The position numbers were made by a program, and so were the translations under genes. Shown here in pieces: positions 11,606-20,000 of a stretch of DNA of 20,000 nucleotides. The stretch is from an uncultured Candidatus Sumerlaeota bacterium (GTDB lineage Bacteria > CAYMEV01), in the NCBI GenBank assembly GCA_964389675.1, contig CAYMEV010000009.1, forward strand, positions 108,310 through 128,309, given 5' to 3'. The notes below the pieces were generated by a model. The model was given only the letters and a program-made list of their open reading frames with translations. It had not been told where the DNA came from and did not search any database. The stretch's first letter is position 1. Every line of letters begins with the position of its first letter.

Positions 11606-13319
11606 AAAGCCCGGGATTCACCCTGTGTCCAGTTGCTTTTTCATAACCGTAAGCTACCTGAAGCAGAAGCCTCTCGTCGCCCTTTGAACCGACAAATGTC
11701 ACGCCTATTGGCTCCCCGTCGCCCTTATAGCCTGCTGGCACACATATGGCAGGATAGCCTGCAGCTGCATATATATATGACATATGATTGCTTAAAGAAA
11801 AAAGCAGGGTGAGGCCATTATCAGCCAGAAGATTGTCAATGACATCACCTGCAGCCTTCCTGTTTGATTCAGCAAGAGATTCAATCTCATCAGCTGTTGA
11901 ATTATTATTCTCAGATGCTGTTAGCAGCTCCTGTCCGAAAGGCATTCTTTCTTCAGGATTTTCAAGATTGAATTCAATAATCTGGGCAAGTGACCTGCAT
12001 TTCTGGCCTCTGGCAAGATTTTCCAGATAACTGTTAATACCGGATCTAAACTGATATTTAAATACAGACAGCACATCAAGCTTATCATAAATGGATTCAT
12101 CCATCTCAATAAAAAGTACCTCAGCTCCTGCCTTTTTAAGCTCACCAGCAATTCGAAGCTGTATAATCCCTTCACCTGTCCTGTAATAATACTGCCTCAT
12201 CAGATCATTCCCGACCAGTCCAAGGCGCATTCCTTTCAGTGGCTTGCCTGAAGGCTCTGACAATCTGTAGTCTGTCATGATTTCACTGCAGGAAGATGTA
12301 GCAGGGTCTGCCTTATCAATTCCTGCAATGACAGATAACATCAGTGCTGCATCCCTTACAGATGATGTTATAGGCCCTGCAGTATCCTGCGCCTCTGCAA
12401 TCGGGATAATGCAATCACGGCTTACAAGACCCAGTGATGGCTTTAATCCTATTACTGAGTTCTGGCTTGCCGGATATACTATTGACCCGGATGTCTCCGT
12501 TCCTAATGCCAAGGGAGACAATCCCATAGCTACAGCTGCTGCAGATCCTGAACTTGAACCACCAGCATCAAAACGGCCGTAGGGATTTACAGTCTGTCCT
12601 CCAAGGGATGAGAACCCATTTGAGGAATTCTCAGACATAAAATTTGCCCATTCGCTCAGGTTTGTTTTTGCAAGTATTATGCCTCCTGATTGTTTAATCC
12701 TGGATACAATAAATGCATCCCTTTTGCAAAAGCTGTTTTCCAGAGCTATTGCTCCTGCACTTGTCGGCTGGCTGTCTGAAGTACCTATATTGGCCTTGAT
12801 AACCACAGGAATACCAAAAATGGGGTATTTTCCCATCTCATCCCTTTTGCTGTCCCAATAACTTGCTTCTTCCAGAGAGTTTTTATTTACCGAGAGAATT
12901 ATATTCATTCCCCTTTCCTGTGATCTTCTCATCTTCAGGAGATAATAGGTTACCACATCGAGCACTGTTATTTCTTCAGAAAATTTCAGCTCAAATCTTT
13001 TAGAGAAAAAGGGAAACGGGCTTCTCCACACAATTCGGCCCTTAATTTCATTATCCCGGTAAAGATTCAAAATATCATGAGCATCTTTCCCATGAAAGAT
13101 ATGATCATAGATTTTCTCCTTCCTTTCTGCAAAATGGTCCAGTTCTTCTCCGCAGAAGCTGAAATCAGCCTGCTTAGCCTTAAAGGAAGATGCCTTTGGG
13201 GAATATTGAAGCATTACCTGTTCTGCAATCCATTTGTCTGCAATTCTTATTTCATCCCCAAGGACCAGACTTGAGATTATAAAGGATAAAATAAGGGTTA
13301 TAATATATGATTTTTTCAT
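11595..13319 (-). CDS. Amidase signature family protein, secreted
   Basis: Signal peptide. GIPVVIKANI (catalytic Lys), KTNLSEWAN, GGSSSGS and GTETSGSI (Ser-cisSer-Lys triad). SD AAGGAG. Confidence 0.93.
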   Translation of the reverse strand: MKKSYIITLILSFIISSLVLGDEIRIADKWIAEQVMLQYSPKASSFKAKQADFSFCGEELDHFAERKEKIYDHIFHGKDAHDILNLYRDNEIKGRIVWRSPFPFFSKRFELKFSEEITVLDVVTYYLLKMRRSQERGMNIILSVNKNSLEEASYWDSKRDEMGKYPIFGIPVVIKANIGTSDSQPTSAGAIALENSFCKRDAFIVSRIKQSGGIILAKTNLSEWANFMSENSSNGFSSLGGQTVNPYGRFDAGGSSSGSAAAVAMGLSPLALGTETSGSIVYPASQNSVIGLKPSLGLVSRDCIIPIAEAQDTAGPITSSVRDAALMLSVIAGIDKADPATSSCSEIMTDYRLSEPSGKPLKGMRLGLVGNDLMRQYYYRTGEGIIQLRIAGELKKAGAEVLFIEMDESIYDKLDVLSVFKYQFRSGINSYLENLARGQKCRSLAQIIEFNLENPEERMPFGQELLTASENNNSTADEIESLAESNRKAAGDVIDNLLADNGLTLLFSLSNHMSYIYAAAGYPAICVPAGYKGDGEPIGVTFVGSKGDERLLLQVAYGYEKATGHRVNPGLFSQ

Positions 13320-13357
13320 ATTCTTCTCCTTAAACCATTACTGATCTATTCAAATTG

Positions 13358-13386
13358 ATTATACAAAATCCCCTGTAAAGACACAA
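13358..13386 (-). promoter_or_regulatory. Candidate promoter of the amidase gene
   Basis: TTGTGT (13386-13381), N17, TATAAT (13363-13358). Confidence 0.5.
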
Positions 13387-13549
13387 TTTTTTTATCTTTA
13401 ATTCCTGTTAAATATTCTGTATTATAATTAAAATCATTATTTATTGCTTATTCTTTTGGCTTGACTATTATTTTTTTAAACCATTTGGATCAATATAATG
13501 TCATAAAATAAACAAAGATGATTGATTAAAATAAATAAAGGAGATTTCT

Positions 13550-14116
13550 ATGAAATACCGGATTTTGCTGACACTTTCTGTCTTATTGCTGATAACTGCT
13601 TTTTGGAGCTGCTCTACCATGCAGGAGCATCCTTCAGGAAAAAGGGTCGCCTTTGAAGTAGGGGCGATCGCTCCCAATTTTGAGGCAAAGGATCTTGATG
13701 GAAATATATATAATCTATGGGACCTTAATGGAAAAAAGGTCATACTGAGCTTCTGGGCTACCTACGATGCAAGATCAAGGCTTCAGCTTGATGATTTTCA
13801 GGAATTCTACAACAGAATGGATAAAGATAAGGCAGTACTCCTTGGCCTGACCTTCAAGGAACAGGAAGGCGATATAATCCCCCTGCTTCAGAGAAGACTG
13901 ATAAATTATCCAAATATAGTCGACAGGCATGGCCGAATTGGAAGATATTACGGAATTACAATAATAGAAAATGTTGATGAGTTTGGCCATCAGATAATTG
14001 ATCCGGATTCTGCAAGAAGCTTTCCAGTTACAGTCTTTATAAATGAGGACAGCACTATCGAGAAAATAATATCTGTGCAGATCAGCCCCCAGATGCTTAA
14101 TGAATTTGCAATGTAG
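13550..14116 (+). CDS. TlpA/ResA-like redoxin-fold lipoprotein lacking the CxxC motif
   Basis: Lipobox FWS-C. GAIAPNFEAKDLDG..GKKVILSFWATYDARSR, NYPNIVD and cis-Pro motif FPVTVFIN. SD AAGGAG. Confidence 0.85.
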   Translation: MKYRILLTLSVLLLITAFWSCSTMQEHPSGKRVAFEVGAIAPNFEAKDLDGNIYNLWDLNGKKVILSFWATYDARSRLQLDDFQEFYNRMDKDKAVLLGLTFKEQEGDIIPLLQRRLINYPNIVDRHGRIGRYYGITIIENVDEFGHQIIDPDSARSFPVTVFINEDSTIEKIISVQISPQMLNEFAM

Positions 14117-14195
14117 CATTAAAGCTGTTGCATCTTGACAGATTTTGCTTTCAGAAGGGGATAAATCAGAAATAGCAGGCTTTAAGAGATAAAAA

Positions 14196-15293
14196 CTATC
14201 TTTGCATTGATTCTACATAATCTGGAAACAGGTATTCAATCAGCTTAAAAAGAAGTCCGGCTGAATGGCTCTTGTCATCCTTGTCAAGCCGGTTGACATT
14301 GATAATTATTACTGCGTTTTTTAACGGCATATAAAACATCTCAGAAGAAAATCCAAATATTGTGCCGTTATGACCCCAGAAACCGCCTATATCAAGTATT
14401 CCAAGGCCATATCGTACCCATTCAGGGCTTTTGTCCATCGGCAATGCCTTCATTTGCTGTTCATGAGTTTCTGCTGTCAGCAGAGACCCGTCATAAAGCG
14501 CCTGGACAAAAATCCACATATCGCTCATACATGATATTACCGCACCACCTGTATGTGGCACTGAAGGATTAAGCTCAGTTACATCCCTGAAACTGTCATT
14601 TTCGAAAGAATATCCCCTGAGTGTGCCCGGGAGGGTATTTACAGTCGGGTATACTGTTTTCTCAAGCCGAAGTGCAGAAAATATATGCTCATCAAACTCT
14701 GATTCAATGGAATTTCCCGTCACCTTTTCAATAATAAGCCCAAGTATACTGTAGTTGACATTACTGTAGACAACCTTTTCACCAGGGGTAAAAAAGCTGT
14801 CTGATTTCATTCCGGACATTTCGACAGCTTCTGAAATCGAGAATTCCATATCAAGATCTTCATACCATTTTGAAAGGAACTCATGGTCGGCAAAATCTGT
14901 AATTCCTGAATTCATATTTAACAGCTGCCTTATCGTTATAATATCTGAGTTCGGAAATTCGGGCAGATATTCTGAAAGGCTGTCATCCAGGCAGATCAGC
15001 CCTTCATCATGCATCTGCAGAATTCTCAGGGCTGTAAATGTTTTTGAGATGCTTGCAATACGGAATGGCTGATTTATTTTGCGAATTATGTTATTGTCTA
15101 TATCAGCAAACCCGAAAGCTTTATGGTAGTTCATTTCTCCATTGATCCATATCAGCACTTCTGCACCCGGTATATTATTAGAATCTATATAAGTCTTTAT
15201 AATTTCATCTAAAGGATCCACATTGTCCCTTTTTTGCTTCTGGCATGAACACATCATAAGGAAAATAGAAAATATAATCAGTATATTTTTCAT
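14196..15293 (-). CDS. Serine hydrolase lipoprotein, beta-lactamase class C / D-peptidase family
   Basis: Lipobox MCS-C. FRIASISKT (SxxK), LLNMNSG, YSNVNY (YxN) and WGHNG. Confidence 0.92.
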   Translation of the reverse strand: MKNILIIFSIFLMMCSCQKQKRDNVDPLDEIIKTYIDSNNIPGAEVLIWINGEMNYHKAFGFADIDNNIIRKINQPFRIASISKTFTALRILQMHDEGLICLDDSLSEYLPEFPNSDIITIRQLLNMNSGITDFADHEFLSKWYEDLDMEFSISEAVEMSGMKSDSFFTPGEKVVYSNVNYSILGLIIEKVTGNSIESEFDEHIFSALRLEKTVYPTVNTLPGTLRGYSFENDSFRDVTELNPSVPHTGGAVISCMSDMWIFVQALYDGSLLTAETHEQQMKALPMDKSPEWVRYGLGILDIGGFWGHNGTIFGFSSEMFYMPLKNAVIIINVNRLDKDDKSHSAGLLFKLIEYLFPDYVESMQR

Positions 15294-15334
15294 TAACTGC
15301 CCCTTTCCGGCTTTTTTATCCGCTTCTATAACGT

Positions 15335-17059
15335 CTATGATGACAGGTAGGAATCAAATACAAGCCTTTTATTCCCAAGATGTTCATATCTATAATCTCT
15401 GTACCTGTTCACTCTTGAAAGTATTATATCCAGATTCTTTCTTTTTTTAAGAATTATTTTAATGCTTTCAGCACTTATTTCTATTCTTCCTGCATTGGAG
15501 AGGCAGGTATCAAAGATTTCTTCATCTTCCATATACATATCCATATCCCTGATAAAAAGCCTGTATATATTGTGCGAAAGAACTGTCATTAAAAAATCAA
15601 ACCTGACATCAATATCCATCGATAAATAATCCTTATTGAGATGAAAAAGCATAATCTGCTTTTTTACCGGTTTTTTATTCAGGTATTTCTCAAAATATAT
15701 CTGTGCTATTCTCTTCTTTTCAGTAAAAAAATCGTTTGTCAGAATTGATACCTTTGCTGAACTGTTCCTGTACAGGATATTAAGGTGCCTGAGCTTATGC
15801 TCTACCGGACTGTCTATTGGATTATATCCCGGATATAGAAGCTTCTCTTCATATACAAATATTTCAGGATTTCTTTCTTTGGAATTTTCATATAGATGAA
15901 TATGGCTCATCAGAGGCAGATCAAGGTCCTTTCCAGTTGTCTTCCCGCCTGCCGTGGGATAAAACCTGTAGAACCTGATTCCATGCCTGTTCAGCTTTCC
16001 GAGATTTTCATGATCTGCCAATGAATAGTCAAAAGCCATGTATTTTGCAAAACTTTTTTTATCCTCAGAACGGCCGTACAGTTCTGCAAACATAAAGGCT
16101 TCCCTGTACAAATCCGGATAACTGCCCGGGTCTTTATACAGATCAATTATCTCCGTTTCGCTGTCATAGGAAAAAACAAGCAGTCTTTCTGTCAGCTGCT
16201 TTTTGCTGTATTCTGAAGGCATCCTCCAGCAGGGTATATTTATGGTATCTATGGTCACATGGCTCCCTAAAAGGCCCTTTTTAAGCCATAATGAGTGCAT
16301 CTTGACCAGGAGATCAAAAGTATATTTATTTTGCAGCTTCTCAGAATAGGATGTAAACCAGTATGGTCTGGGAAGGACTGATAGCCCTGCAAACAACCCC
16401 AGTCCCCTGTCCATGGAAAAAAGCTCTTCAGAGCTTTGCCTGTTCAGTTTGGACAGTTTCAGCGCAAGAAATGACATTATTATAGACATTTTTGAAAATC
16501 CGGGCATATCAGGCAAAATAGAATCATTTATGATTTTATCTATCCCGTATAGCTTAACATAGGGTATTAAAAGAAGTATACCGATATTTGAGCTTTGAAA
16601 GGCCTCCGGGGAAAAATCCAGGCTTATGCTGACTGACTCTTTTACAGCAGTTTTTTCAGACCTCTTTCTTTTTTTAAGCTTCTGAAAGCCCTCTTTTTTT
16701 AATAATCTGTAGCAATAGCTTTCTGATACCACACAGCCCCTTGCATCAAGTATGGACTTTATCTCCTGGATGGAGAAACCCTCTTTCCTCAGTGAGATAA
16801 TCTCCTTCTTTATGTCATCGCTTATCCTTTTTGTTCTCTTTCCGGGTGATTTAACCTTGAAAAAATAATCATCCCGGGGATTAGTTTTCAAAAAAGCCTT
16901 GAATTCTCGCAGAAGAGAATAGAAAGATGACTGAGTATAGCCATATTTTTCTGCTACAACGGATGCAGGCAGATTATTCAGGTAATACTCCCTGAGTGCT
17001 TCATATTTCTTCTGTGAAGCGCTTCTGTATTTTCTGAAATATTCTTTCGGCTGAACCAT
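15335..17059 (-). CDS. Transposase-derived protein (two HTH regions plus a degenerate DDE core), probably non-catalytic
   Basis: N-terminal QKKYEALR...VAEKYGYT HTH and a second HTH IISLRKEGFSIQEI...SESYCYRLLKKEGF. Motifs DRGLGLFAGL.VLP, AFDY, ILTND, FHLN, V.FD..MT.L.HNIYR and LGNKRL.F are typical of a large, poorly classified IS4-superfamily-like DDE transposase group. No terminal repeats seen. Confidence 0.75.
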   Translation of the reverse strand: MVQPKEYFRKYRSASQKKYEALREYYLNNLPASVVAEKYGYTQSSFYSLLREFKAFLKTNPRDDYFFKVKSPGKRTKRISDDIKKEIISLRKEGFSIQEIKSILDARGCVVSESYCYRLLKKEGFQKLKKRKRSEKTAVKESVSISLDFSPEAFQSSNIGILLLIPYVKLYGIDKIINDSILPDMPGFSKMSIIMSFLALKLSKLNRQSSEELFSMDRGLGLFAGLSVLPRPYWFTSYSEKLQNKYTFDLLVKMHSLWLKKGLLGSHVTIDTINIPCWRMPSEYSKKQLTERLLVFSYDSETEIIDLYKDPGSYPDLYREAFMFAELYGRSEDKKSFAKYMAFDYSLADHENLGKLNRHGIRFYRFYPTAGGKTTGKDLDLPLMSHIHLYENSKERNPEIFVYEEKLLYPGYNPIDSPVEHKLRHLNILYRNSSAKVSILTNDFFTEKKRIAQIYFEKYLNKKPVKKQIMLFHLNKDYLSMDIDVRFDFLMTVLSHNIYRLFIRDMDMYMEDEEIFDTCLSNAGRIEISAESIKIILKKRKNLDIILSRVNRYRDYRYEHLGNKRLVFDSYLSS

Positions 17060-17065
17060 ATTTAA

Positions 17066-17093
17066 TCTATATAATTACAGCCGAAAAGGTCAA
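17066..17093 (-). promoter_or_regulatory. Candidate leaderless promoter of the transposase-derived gene
   Basis: TTGACC (17093-17088), N16, TATAGA (17071-17066), 6 nt, then ATG (17059). No SD sequence. Confidence 0.45.
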
Positions 17094-17171
17094 TATATTT
17101 GTATATTCAGTTATTTTTTCTTGTTTTTTTTTTAACACAGTATATTTTTTAGCTGAAATACGGGCTATATT

Positions 17172-18614
17172 ATGAAAATTGAAAAGATTTTATTGATCAA
17201 TCCGCCATACAGCTATGAAAAACAGCTTGGCTTTCTATCGCACAATTCCCCAAAGGTACCTCCAATGGGGCTTTTATCCATAGGTTCCTATGCTAAGCAT
17301 AATGGATATTCTGTCAGGATACTGGATGCCCAGACCCTTAATCTGAATGACAATGACATTTTGACCGAAATCAAATCCTGCAGGCCTGATCTTGTAGGGT
17401 TTACAGCCGTTACACTTAATATATCCGATGCATCACGCCTTGCAAAGAAGATAAAGGATAATTATCCCGGAATAATTACTGTAGTTGGCGGGATCCATGT
17501 AAGCGCACTTCCGGAAAAGACACTGGGAAAATACCCCTATTATGATTATATTGTACTGGGGGAAGGTGAAATAACCTTTTATGAGCTTCTAAATGCTCTT
17601 AATCAGGACCTTGATATCCATAATGTTGCAGGGTTAGCCTACCTTGATGAACATGGCAGATATTTCAGCACCGGAGCAAGGAAATTCATAGCCGACCTTG
17701 ATTCTCTGCCTGCTGAAGACTGGGAATTAATAGAAGGTCTGAACAGGACATACCATCCTGCACTTCCCCTTATCAAAAAGCTTCCAAGTGCCACTCTTAT
17801 AACAGGAAGAGGCTGCATAGGCAGGTGTATTTTCTGCTCCACTAATTTCCTTGAGGGGAAAAAGCTCAGAATATTTTCTGCTGACAGGGTTTTAAGCAAT
17901 ATAGATATTTTATACAATAAGTATGGTATAAGGGACATCAGCTTTTATGACGTTAATTTCATGGTTAACAGGAAAAGGTTCTTCAGGATCACAGAGACCA
18001 TAAAAGAAAGATTCCCTGAGCTTACATGGTCAGGGTATGCAAGAGTGGACTGTGTCGATCTGGAAATGCTCAAACAGGCAAAAAGAACAGGCTGCTATCA
18101 TATAAGCTATGGGATTGAGTCAGGAAATGAGGAAATTCTCAGGTTTATAAAGAAGGGCATAACAAAGGATAAAGTAAGGCAGGTGATAAACTGGACGAGA
18201 CAGGCAGGTCTCACGACAAGAGGCCTGTTTATGTTCGGCCATCCCACCGAAACCAAAAAAACCCTGCAGGATACACTTGATTTCATCCTTGAGCTGAAGC
18301 TTGATGATTTTCATTCAACACTATTTACACCCCTGCCCGGCACTGATATTTATTATACAGCATCTGAATATGGTCAGTTCAATGAAGACTGGGATAAAAT
18401 GAATATATTCAACTGCCTTTTCATCCCTGAAGGCCTTGATAAAAAGACCCTGGAAAAATATCAGAAGAAGGCATATACATCCTTTTATTTAAGGCCCGGG
18501 GCCTTACTGAACAAATTAAGGAATTTGATCACCAACAGGTATGGCTTAAAGATACTGTTCTACGGAGGATTGTCAATGCTGTACCTGATGTTCTCAAAAA
18601 GGAATAACGGCTGA
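17172..18614 (+). CDS. Cobalamin-binding radical SAM protein (BchE / class B methyltransferase-like)
   Basis: N-terminal B12-binding domain (LLINPP, PPMGLLSI, VGGIHVS, GEGE). CxxxCxxC in GRGCIGRCIFC. GIESGN, FMFGHP.ET and TPLPGT. Confidence 0.93.
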   Translation: MKIEKILLINPPYSYEKQLGFLSHNSPKVPPMGLLSIGSYAKHNGYSVRILDAQTLNLNDNDILTEIKSCRPDLVGFTAVTLNISDASRLAKKIKDNYPGIITVVGGIHVSALPEKTLGKYPYYDYIVLGEGEITFYELLNALNQDLDIHNVAGLAYLDEHGRYFSTGARKFIADLDSLPAEDWELIEGLNRTYHPALPLIKKLPSATLITGRGCIGRCIFCSTNFLEGKKLRIFSADRVLSNIDILYNKYGIRDISFYDVNFMVNRKRFFRITETIKERFPELTWSGYARVDCVDLEMLKQAKRTGCYHISYGIESGNEEILRFIKKGITKDKVRQVINWTRQAGLTTRGLFMFGHPTETKKTLQDTLDFILELKLDDFHSTLFTPLPGTDIYYTASEYGQFNEDWDKMNIFNCLFIPEGLDKKTLEKYQKKAYTSFYLRPGALLNKLRNLITNRYGLKILFYGGLSMLYLMFSKRNNG

Positions 18615-18656
18615 TATAACCAGCCCTGTATGTACCGCCGTTCTGCTTAAGTTTCC

Positions 18657-18688
18657 GAGGGCAACAGCGCCGTGCTGCTGTTACCCTC
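18657..18688. other. GC-rich stem-loop between convergent genes
   Basis: Minus-strand RNA GAGGGUAACAGC, 8-nt loop, GCUGUUGCCCUC: a 12-bp stem with one U.G pair. No U-tract on either side. Confidence 0.65.
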
Positions 18689-18694
18689 TGCTTC

Positions 18695-20000
18695 CTACTC
18701 CTCGACCAGGTTTACAACTACATAAAGCACATCCCCGCCGATTCTCTCATATTCATTTTCAGAAATTTTCTTTTCCAGATAGAGCTCATGAACAACATAA
18801 CTGCATAAGGATTCAGGAAAGGTCATTGTCACTGTCTCTTTATGCAGATCGGGAAGATCAGATATCGGAATGGTCCAGTTCCAGGCAGGGCTTACCTTAT
18901 CCAGGGTATTTTGAATTTGCACCCTTACATCTTTTGTTTTATCATACAGGTAATAGACAGGTTCCTGCAGGTCCTCCCATGTCCCGTTGTTTATTACCTT
19001 AAAATCAATGCTGTAGGAAACTCCCATGTCCTTAATTATAGGATACCTTTCCATGCACCTGATGGCATTATTTTCAAAATAGCTTCTCCTGTAATCATCT
19101 GGATATGTATAATACATACCGTATTTCCAGTCCTGTTCTTCATCAAAAAACCTCTCATTTATACAGTTATTGAATTCAACAAGGTTATCTTGATTAAATA
19201 CAGGAGCATCGTAATTTATAATGGAGGAATACTTGTTATTATATCCTGCCCCGAATAGCGAGGCTATACCTGCGATCCGTTCAACCCTGTCCGCATTCTG
19301 GTCATAGTGATTGTCCGTATCTCCGTCGCTATCAATTATAAAAAAACTGGACACATTCTCTAATCCCTGTTGCTGGTACCAAGTATCCTCTCTTGTCCTG
19401 TTAAGTGCATCAAGAATATAATCCTTCTCAGCATTTTCCCATGCTGTATAGTCTCCATTATATGGAGGGCCGTCGGGGTCATCAAGCTGCCAGTTATCAT
19501 AATCGCCTGCAGTATTAGACGCATGGATAGATACAATGTCTATCATCCTGTCTGCTCCCTGGTCCAGAAGAAACAGGCCTCTTCTGGCATAAGGCTCTCC
19601 TTGGGCATTAAATGCCACCAGCGCTTTGGGCCTTTCTTCCTTTATCCATTTAGCGATCTGATAGCTCCATCTTGCTGAGAGGTTGTAGGGCTGACGATTG
19701 GTTTGGGCTATTACTTTTTTAGGCTCATTCTCTATCTCAAATATTACATTCCAGCAGTCATCAGGTATACTATGAACTACCCTCTTTACATAATCCCGCT
19801 GTATTCCTCCCAATGCATTCAAACGCTTATCCTTAAATTCTATATATGTTCCGAACATATCCTCCTGCCATTCCCAGATATTATAAAAGCATTTGTCTGT
19901 CTCTTCATCAATTTCTTGATCTTGAGGATATGGAGACCCAGTTCGCGGAAGATATGCGTCCGTTACATAATTATTTCTCTGAGGGTTCCATGCTGAGTAT
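18695..20000 (-). CDS. Putative glycoside hydrolase-like (GH-A / GH5-like TIM barrel) protein with C-terminal beta-sandwich; 5' end outside the window
   Basis: The frame stays open upstream of ATG 19858 to the window edge (YSAWNPQRNNY...WEWQED). QRDYVKRVV...NVIFEIENEP resembles a GH-A acid/base motif, followed by DIVSIH. The C-terminal beta-rich region begins YSIDFKVINNG. Confidence 0.55.
   Translation of the reverse strand, partial: YSAWNPQRNNYVTDAYLPRTGSPYPQDQEIDEETDKCFYNIWEWQEDMFGTYIEFKDKRLNALGGIQRDYVKRVVHSIPDDCWNVIFEIENEPKKVIAQTNRQPYNLSARWSYQIAKWIKEERPKALVAFNAQGEPYARRGLFLLDQGADRMIDIVSIHASNTAGDYDNWQLDDPDGPPYNGDYTAWENAEKDYILDALNRTREDTWYQQQGLENVSSFFIIDSDGDTDNHYDQNADRVERIAGIASLFGAGYNNKYSSIINYDAPVFNQDNLVEFNNCINERFFDEEQDWKYGMYYTYPDDYRRSYFENNAIRCMERYPIIKDMGVSYSIDFKVINNGTWEDLQEPVYYLYDKTKDVRVQIQNTLDKVSPAWNWTIPISDLPDLHKETVTMTFPESLCSYVVHELYLEKKISENEYERIGGDVLYVVVNLVEE

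Follow-up and report, generated by a model that had tools for sequence, protein, structure and literature searches.

Introduction

Transposase domestication is well documented in eukaryotes, and in prokaryotes it is known for HUH transposases (TnpA-REP) and for TnpB (TldR, Cas12). Eukaryotic host proteins derived from the DDE (aspartate-aspartate-glutamate) transposases of pogo, Mutator, hAT and piggyBac elements have lost the transposon ends, are encoded in single copy and have syntenic orthologues, with a conserved DNA-binding domain and a catalytic core that is relaxed or dead. The same pattern is shown by a gene from an uncultured sediment bacterium of the Candidatus Sumerlaeota (assembly GCA_964389675.1, contig CAYMEV010000009.1), located in a stretch of 20,000 nucleotides (nt; positions 108,310–128,309 of the contig), hereafter the window. 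The gene, a 574-residue open reading frame (ORF) at 15335..17059 on the minus strand and the query of all comparisons below, derives from a transposase, is immobile, has an orthologue in synteny and is under constraint, which are the comparative criteria of domestication. We consider it very probable that it is a domesticated DDE transposase in a bacterium.

Among the prokaryotic precedents, TnpA-REP (RAYT) has been called 'the first prokaryotic domesticated transposase' (PMC8266576; see also PMC3333891). Like the window gene, it is a single-copy, chromosomally fixed transposase relative in bacteria; unlike the putatively dead DDE protein of the window, for which no associated repeats were found, it is an HUH/Y1 enzyme active on REP sequences. 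TldR is described as a nuclease-dead, TnpB-derived transposon protein repurposed by the host as a repressor (10.1101/2023.11.30.569447). It has a RuvC fold and is RNA-guided, whereas the window protein combines an RNase H-like DDE domain with a protein helix-turn-helix (HTH). The function of TldR was shown experimentally; the window protein is known from its sequence and a predicted model. The link drawn between IS110 and Nop5 is a further prokaryotic precedent (10.1101/2024.06.21.599552). Among the papers listed by word searches of open-access text, none reports that a bacterium has fixed a dead DDE transposase of the IS4/Tn5 fold in its chromosome, which is no proof of absence.

The window protein resembles the Tn5/IS4 superfamily (PF01609) in its predicted Tn5 fold, in the PF01609 domain of its homologues and in the Y-x2-R-x3-E signature of its parent family. 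It departs from that superfamily in reading Y-x2-K-x3-K, in matching no Pfam DDE family, in lacking ends and target duplications, in being single-copy and in carrying an extra N-terminus of 140 residues with a double HTH, which Tn5 is without. It cannot count as a functional IS4-superfamily transposase, since triad, signature, ends and mobility all fail. The Tn5 inhibitor protein (Inh) is made from the gene of the active element itself, in a form that is truncated at the N-terminus and is without the DNA-binding end; it acts without cutting DNA. Inh resembles the window protein in being non-catalytic and in belonging to the same superfamily, and its structure (PDB 1b7e) is among the fold matches of the window protein; the latter differs in being encoded by a separate, fixed host gene, in keeping the N-terminus and in having lost catalytic residues.

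Loss of the catalytic triad and signature

At a threshold of E ≤ 0.001, the scored candidates included 629 homologues of the query (best E 1e-107), so the ORF is not a chance frame. Relatives that are 33–39% identical to it over its full length measure 577–616 amino acids, have the same domain order, carry PF01609 and often PF13701 as well, and lie mostly on contigs of about 2 kb, the signature of collapsed repeats. The window gene and its orthologue (P0002, described below; hereafter the window pair) nest inside this family.

Alignment A2 contained 78 sequences, namely the query, the orthologue and 76 other family members. In these 76, the triad columns are strongly conserved (D at 271 in 75, D at 344 in 73 and E at 462 in 74), the full DDE triad is present in 72, and column 458 is R in 73. 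The query reads D-D-K, with D271 in TIDTINIPCW (codon 16247–16249), D344 in MAFDYSLA (16028–16030) and K462 (15674–15676), and these three residues were confirmed codon by codon on the window DNA. The signature, Y-S-R-R-W-L-V-E in the family (Y-x2-R-x3-E), is replaced after SILTNDFF by Y455-F-E-K-Y-L-N-K462 (15697–15674), that is, Y455-x2-K458-x3-K462, with K458 encoded at 15686–15688. The orthologue reads E-S-R and thus has lost all three catalytic residues. In addition, deletions of four and three amino acids follow the first core strand of the query in comparison with all 20 DDE-bearing sequences of alignment A1.

These columns agree with the initial annotation, made from the window sequence, which had described both aspartates as retained, the catalytic Glu as replaced by Lys, R-W as K-Y, and the loop after D271 as shortened. 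One proposal did not hold: E457, put forward there as a possible substitute for the catalytic Glu, aligns with the first R of the family Y-S-R-R-W-L-V-E, five residues upstream of the Glu position, and is N in the orthologue. Judging by these residues, canonical two-metal catalysis must certainly be impossible for the orthologue and is very likely impossible for the window protein.

The parent insertion sequence

The parent element is a real, active, widespread and unclassified insertion sequence (IS) of the IS4 superfamily. One closed Saprospiraceae chromosome carries seven copies of 2073 bp that are 99.7–99.95% identical (Table 1). Their ends, CACACAAATTCACGGGA and CACACATTATCACGGGA, form imperfect terminal inverted repeats, and 5-bp AT-rich target duplications are exact in five of the seven copies and agree at four of five positions in the other two. 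For comparison, 80 genomic loci of the family were taken. The ends are conserved across phyla, with the consensus CAYRGATTTTCACGG. Of the 94 DDE-intact loci whose flanks were long enough, 79 have both ends (at most three mismatches); the median distance is 290 bp from the left end to the start codon and 35 bp from the stop to the right end, which in the parent IS lies 33–45 bp past the stop. The family is widespread in environmental genomes, with 224 confirmed stretches.

The Y-x2-R-x3-E signature in region C1 is described as the hallmark of IS4, and duplications of about 5 bp as typical of the 'emerging' IS4-related families IS1634, ISH3 and IS701 (PMC2266710); in size and duplication length, the parent IS resembles the IS1634 row in Table 1 of that paper. 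It is thus nearest to IS1634, ISH3 and IS701 by its duplications and to IS1380 by NCBIfam score. No family member reached an NCBIfam IS cut-off (34–71 bits for IS1380, cut-off 180; 17–26 bits for IS1634, cut-off 100), and a tblastn search of P0010 against plasmid annotation, meant to name the parent family, gave no match. Since it stays below every NCBIfam IS-family threshold, the family may deserve a name of its own. The initial placement of the window gene in the IS4 superfamily is accordingly borne out by the fold (Tn5 as top match) and by PF01609 in the homologues, and finds no counterpart at the level of NCBIfam IS families.

A third copy of the end-like motif, internal to the element (TATCACGGTAAT, at most two mismatches), was found no more than 70 nt from the start codon in 33 of the 122 active loci, against none of 122 in a control stretch and one of 122 on the other strand. 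It sits 20–70 nt upstream of the ATG, for example in L018, L029, L033, L047, L065 and L074, and probably serves autoregulation, as a site at which the transposase binds over the promoter of its element.

Decaying copies also occur in the family: read in a single frame, L057 (3001–4719) has one stop and L154 (363–2119) has 13. Two members that are 34% identical (L012 and L013) come from contigs assigned by binning to Thermoplasmatales archaea; the IS family crosses domains, unless the binning of these short contigs is wrong.

Immobility of the window gene

Members of the parent family are mobile, multi-copy elements of 2073 bp with CAYRGATTTTCACGG ends and 5-bp AT-rich duplications. Unlike them, the window gene is immobile, its ends lost and its copy single. 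It is the one family match in its own genome (G000; 93.8% complete, 58 contigs), and the genome that carries the orthologue (G001; 91% complete) likewise has one family match, which is uninterrupted. No family-type end with at most three mismatches lies in the flanks of either gene; at this threshold, the end pattern has six matches in the window (4.0 expected) and eight at the orthologous locus, L006 (3.8 expected), none of them in the flanks, and the best matches near the orthologue have five and six mismatches of 15. The left arm of the parent IS (about 290 bp) would not fit into the 112-nt upstream spacer, and the 41-nt downstream spacer contains no right-end repeat. Flanks without inverted repeats or target duplications had been noted in the initial annotation, and this stands now that the parent ends have been defined from real IS copies; the copy number, on which its reading also depended, is one in both genomes.

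Across the whole window genome, the end pattern at no more than one mismatch has one match, as does a control pattern. That sole match (L087) was rejected as an IS end, lying inside an unrelated ORF with a GIY-YIG domain. An inverted repeat around the window gene (I1, 15271–15293 and 17172–17194, 74% complementary) was also rejected, both arms being inside the start regions of the neighbouring genes.

A still-active transposase, working with non-canonical residues or unrecognised ends, would account for the retention of D271 and D344 in the query and for E457 close by. It is hardly credible in view of E-S-R and of N at the E457 position in the orthologue, of the single copy at the same locus in both species, and of the lack of inverted repeats with family-like sequence or spacing.

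Orthology and timing of the inactivation

Homologues were searched for in 40 other genomes, of which one belongs to the same genus (G001) and the rest are related at the domain level only. A close homologue was found in one of the 40, G001, in single copy. Likewise, among 1.84 billion cluster representatives the sole close protein was the orthologue P0002 (597 bits), the next match scoring 301 bits. The organism is very isolated in the genome collection, with a single same-genus species and other 'relatives' at domain level.

Five genes are collinear in the two species, in the order radical SAM gene, window gene, hydrolase, redoxin and amidase. The orthologue is 49% identical to the window protein (about 50% in the genome search), and the neighbours are 67–76% identical, the hydrolase (67%) and radical SAM (76%) genes occupying the same positions in G001; the spacer to the hydrolase measures 41 nt in the window and 35 nt in G001. 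Conserved synteny, which the initial annotation had left for comparison with related genomes, is therefore present in a second species. The only break in the five-gene block is a stretch of about 11 kb in G001 (L006 7465–18658), with about nine ORFs between hydrolase and redoxin, which is not in the window.

The window pair has both deletions in common, and shares many derived states at family-conserved columns, among them L270I, T348A, R458K, S479L, F519C and P544D. Since deletions and substitutions are common to both orthologues, the inactivation preceded the split of the species. In a tree of the 78 proteins, obtained by a quick search with SH-aLRT support only, the pair forms a clade with support 100, a stem of 1.47 changes per column and tips of 0.75 and 0.86, and sits among DDE-intact transposases, inside a clade of 39 rows (support 98) whose internal branches are 0.06–0.4. 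In the history that we favour, a Tn5-fold DDE transposase of a widespread IS family would have become fixed in the chromosome of the ancestor of the genus; both IS ends and the catalytic residues of this copy would have disappeared, and purifying selection would since have maintained the copy as a gene of the host.

Domain-wise constraint

The window gene is under purifying selection, with the tightest constraint in the N-terminal HTHs and the loosest in the former catalytic core. For the orthologue pair, the NG86 method gives 0.437 non-synonymous substitutions per site (dN), 2.92 synonymous substitutions per site (dS) and a ratio (omega) of 0.15, or 0.17 by maximum likelihood (ML), values that are only approximate because dS is saturated (above 2), although their direction is clear. 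Omega is 0.058–0.085 in the neighbour genes, and the window gene evolves two to three times faster than they do (dN 0.44 against 0.15–0.24).

Per-region dN was estimated by ML and compared with the retention, by the query, of family columns conserved at 90% or more. The HTH region (residues 1–140) has the lowest dN, 0.29 (0.29–0.30), and keeps 13 of 13 such columns; the Tn5-like N-domain (141–265) has 0.37 and keeps 17 of 18. In the former core, dN rises to 0.87 in residues 266–345 and 0.74 in residues 346–440 (range over 266–440, 0.71–0.87), with 4 of 13 and 4 of 11 columns kept. It falls again to 0.44 in the signature helices (441–510; 8 of 15 columns) and 0.36 (0.34–0.36) in the C-terminal domain (511–574), which keeps neither of its two conserved columns and is 58% identical between the orthologues. 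Over residues 266–510 as a whole, 16 of 39 columns are retained. The HTH region of the query is 52% identical to the family consensus, against a median of 59% in active members, and all five residues that distinguish P0002 from its 99% variant P0270 fall within 293–383. Because it is still 29–37% identical between the orthologues, the core is relaxed rather than free. Selection would thus preserve the bipartite HTH region, the Tn5-like N-domain and the C-terminal domain, and the dead RNase H-like core would persist as a faster-evolving scaffold.

We simulated neutral point substitution at the composition of the window. At 0.02 substitutions per site, 260 of 2000 runs still had an open frame; 21 of 2000 did so at 0.05, and none of 2000 at 0.1 or more. 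Each of the two lineages has travelled about one substitution per synonymous site. A decaying IS relic, its open frame a leftover without selection, would fit with the loss of catalytic residues and both ends and with the blindness of Pfam to the DDE domain. It is very improbable, set against an intact syntenic orthologue at 49% identity and dS above 2, the simulation, the domain-specific conservation, and the different look of truly decaying family copies, with one stop in L057 and 13 in L154.

The frame might also be kept open merely to spare the downstream hydrolase from polarity, the protein itself being functionless. The hydrolase is indeed co-oriented and follows after 41 nt (35 nt in G001) with no terminator-like site between, yet such an effect would maintain the frame and not the residues. 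An omega of about 0.15, the 13 of 13 HTH invariants and the domain-wise dN point to selection on the protein itself, and this explanation, too, deserves very little weight. The initial annotation had proposed selection on a non-catalytic function, with the DNA-binding half kept, and had named a per-domain dN/dS comparison as a way to check it. The syntenic E-S-R orthologue, an omega of about 0.15–0.17 with the lowest dN in the HTHs, the column counts and the rapid closing of the frame under neutral drift all agree with that proposal.

Predicted fold

In Pfam, the window protein itself has sub-threshold matches to HTH_28 (residues 18–55) and HTH_32 (70–120) alone. Neither the query (E ≤ 1) nor P0002 (E ≤ 0.1) matches a Pfam DDE family, and homologues score 40–51 bits for DDE_Tnp (cut-off 23). 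NCBIfam matches of the query are confined to the N-terminus and are IS481/IS3/IS630-like, with no match to the IS1380 model (NF033539, cut-off 180 bits).

An AlphaFold model of the window protein (predicted local distance difference test, pLDDT, 84.5; predicted template modelling score, pTM, 0.77) was built on an alignment dominated by active relatives. Its helices 14–59 and 81–122 form N-terminal helical bundles which, with the sub-threshold Pfam matches, correspond to the two HTH-like regions seen in the initial annotation. This region matches the bipartite DNA-binding domain of Tc3 and also the DNA-binding domains of sigma-54 RpoN, GcrA and ArgR (structural Z about 6 in each case). In Foldseek, Tn5 chains were the top matches of the model (E 1.3e-7), and the VIA comparison with Tn5 transposase gave Z 16.7 and a root-mean-square deviation of 5.0 over 333 residues, with model residues 162–532 aligned to Tn5 residues 6–469. 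According to the model, the window protein has a Tn5-type fold, comprising an RNase H-like core and a Tn5-type insertion domain.

D271 lies in strand 267–279 of the model, D344 at the end of strand 340–344 and K462 directly past helix 448–461. A profile search of PDB sequences, meant to map the triad onto Tn5, gave nothing significant; as there is no residue-level Tn5 superposition, the equivalence of K462 with the catalytic Glu rests on family conservation, the YREK signature and secondary structure. A complex prediction for self-association of residues 441–574 scored 0.00 and was counted neither way.

A second inactivated lineage

Four other members of A2 deviate from the triad: P0122 (D-N-T), P0130 (C-N-E), P0125 (D-E-E) and P0128 (D-D-D). 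All are singleton clusters on contigs of 17–63 kb. P0122 and P0130 are 39% identical, both intact, have the change of the second D to N in common and match no Pfam DDE family, and K at the position of the signature arginine is found only in these two and the window pair. At the locus of P0130 (L148, Table 1), there are no family-type ends (best matches with five and six mismatches) and P0130 has no Pfam domain. Its neighbours are ABC-transporter genes and a divergent gene for a Metallophos-NACHT-AAA_21 protein of 1267 amino acids, which looks defence-like.

The 78-protein tree places P0122 and P0130 apart from the window pair. A single origin of the four inactivated proteins, a group named after the tree had been seen, was disfavoured but not rejected by the approximately unbiased (AU) test (p 0.055, delta lnL 37.8). 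It is conceivable, if doubtful, that host proteins arose from dead transposases of this family on more than one occasion, in bacteria unrelated to one another. Were the origins independent, the old active-site helix would have been remodelled convergently for a new DNA-handling function common to both lineages, and bacteria would then have an equivalent of the transcription factors that eukaryotes derived from DDE transposases.

Candidate functions

From its ancestry and from the pattern of constraint, we infer that the domesticated protein may be a DNA-binding host regulator acting on target genes of its own, a reading that we rank first and to which we would give close to an even chance. It would bind specific DNA without cleaving it and serve as a transcriptional regulator or as an architectural factor.

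The conserved HTH region also lends itself to another use, the main rival, that of a trans-dominant inhibitor giving immunity against parent-family elements that enter the cell, in which the dead protein would bind family ends through its HTHs and either block them or poison transpososomes by forming mixed oligomers. The similarity of this region to the family consensus (52% against the median of 59%), with all 13 invariants kept, means that the ancestral specificity may persist; moreover, family ends are highly conserved across phyla, the parent family is widespread in 224 confirmed stretches, the window gene evolves faster than its neighbours, and Inh offers a precedent within the superfamily. 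We nonetheless regard this role as unlikely. Neither genome contains an active relative (both are incomplete MAGs, which often lose repeats), and family-type ends are not in excess over the control, the sole match lying in the GIY-YIG gene. The constraint has persisted since a species split for which dS is saturated, which speaks for a more constant benefit than sporadic invasions could provide, and known inhibitors are element-encoded and without the DNA-binding N-terminus that the window protein keeps.

A further possibility is another non-catalytic role, as a DNA-bridging or synapsis factor or as a partner that recruits an enzyme, in which the Tn5-like body would matter as much as the HTHs. 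A body of 434 residues has been kept without disruptive indels, and even its least conserved stretch has 29% identity between the orthologues. Conservation is also good in the C-terminal domain, and Lys458, seen only in the four inactivated family members, hints that the old active-site helix has acquired a new use common to them. Against this, the two inactivated lineages have no conserved partner gene in common, and we hold such a role to be rather improbable.

Several observations weigh against the reading of the window gene as a domesticated transposase with a regulatory role. The query itself retains D271 and D344. Only two species carry the gene, both represented by MAGs, in which repeated IS copies could be unassembled. 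Besides the saturation of dS, the ML estimate for the radical SAM neighbour (dS 0.247, omega 0.84) is clearly unstable. The AlphaFold model indicates fold compatibility and is no independent proof of a Tn5 fold. No promoter-proximal site of the TATCACGGTAAT type was found upstream of the window gene or of its orthologue, nor was a candidate operator seen in the upstream region, where the conserved blocks can be read as two back-to-back promoters. Finally, the neighbours of P0130 are unrelated to those of the window gene, so context gives no common functional hint.

With the ends, target duplication and internal promoter-proximal motif of the parent element defined, binding of the window protein to ancestral ends is readily testable. 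Annotation pipelines miss genes of this kind: the query has no significant Pfam domain, and it and its orthologue are nameless in the annotation sources compared.

Expression signals and genomic context

Coordinates are collected in Table 1. The layout given in the initial annotation, an uninterrupted ORF with short flanks and a co-oriented serine hydrolase downstream, was found unchanged. The family motif MDRGLGLFAGL..VLP..WF.SY sits in the domain that matches the N-terminal part of Tn5 transposase.

Table 1. Positions of the window gene, its parts and neighbours, and of family members at other loci (window coordinates unless a locus is named)
Feature	Location	Strand	Details
Immobilised, predicted-inactive derivative of an IS4-superfamily (Tn5-fold) DDE transposase	15335..17059	-	ATG ORF, 574 amino acids
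Residues 1–140, two N-terminal HTH modules, most conserved part	16640..17059	-	
Residues 141–265, helical domain matching N-terminal part of Tn5 transposase	16265..16639	-	
Residues 266–510, former RNase H-like catalytic core and insertion domain (predicted)	15530..16264	-	
Residues 511–574 and stop, small C-terminal alpha/beta domain (predicted)	15335..15529	-	pLDDT above 90
Promoter-like TTGACC-18 nt-TAGATT	17064..17093	-	promoter scan
Divergent intergenic region of 112 nt, common to window gene and radical SAM gene	17060..17171	.	
Spacer of 41 nt to co-oriented hydrolase gene	15294..15334	.	
Downstream neighbour, beta-lactamase-family serine hydrolase	14196..15293	-	PF00144, E 9e-51
Divergent neighbour, B12-binding radical SAM enzyme	17172..18614	+	PF02310 and PF04055
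Seven parent IS copies	L033, L034, L036, L038, L040, L042, L048: 2708–4780 of each locus		
P0130	L148: 5866–7743	+	61-kb contig

The promoter-like sequence upstream of the window gene ends 4 nt before the ATG and, like the intergenic region in which it lies, is kept at the orthologous locus despite saturated synonymous sites; in the upstream alignment of the two species, TATTGACCTTT and ATATATAGATT are conserved. Since no Shine-Dalgarno sequence is visible upstream of the ATG, the transcript may be leaderless or begin just a few nucleotides ahead of it. Co-transcription with the hydrolase appears possible, as there is no terminator-like site in the spacer. A conserved promoter of host type would thus drive the domesticated gene and perhaps the hydrolase along with it, back-to-back with the radical SAM gene.

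Compared with the 5' arms of 16 active elements, the 112-nt region showed no significant similarity, yielding only short AT-rich words, the best at E 0.006 and on the opposite strand. The 7-nt word ATAGATT, common to the -10 region and the family end, was treated as chance, and a likeness by eye of ACCTTT...TAAT.ATA to the promoter-proximal site of active elements was dropped (5 of 12 positions mismatched).

A scan of 13000–20000 against Rfam gave no match, and neither did the window gene against PADLOC defence-system models. The radical SAM neighbour has a match (E 8.4e-18) to PDC-M51A, one of the candidate defence models in PADLOC; this may reflect general radical SAM similarity only. The GC content at third codon positions (GC3) of the window gene is 0.41, and that of its neighbours is 0.37–0.44.

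The locus was also found in three other sequencing runs of sediment metagenomes, made in different studies, on contigs at about 99–100% identity. On the short, low-depth contigs of runs X2–X4, the gene shows one difference, 16820 G>A, which is synonymous (S80S).

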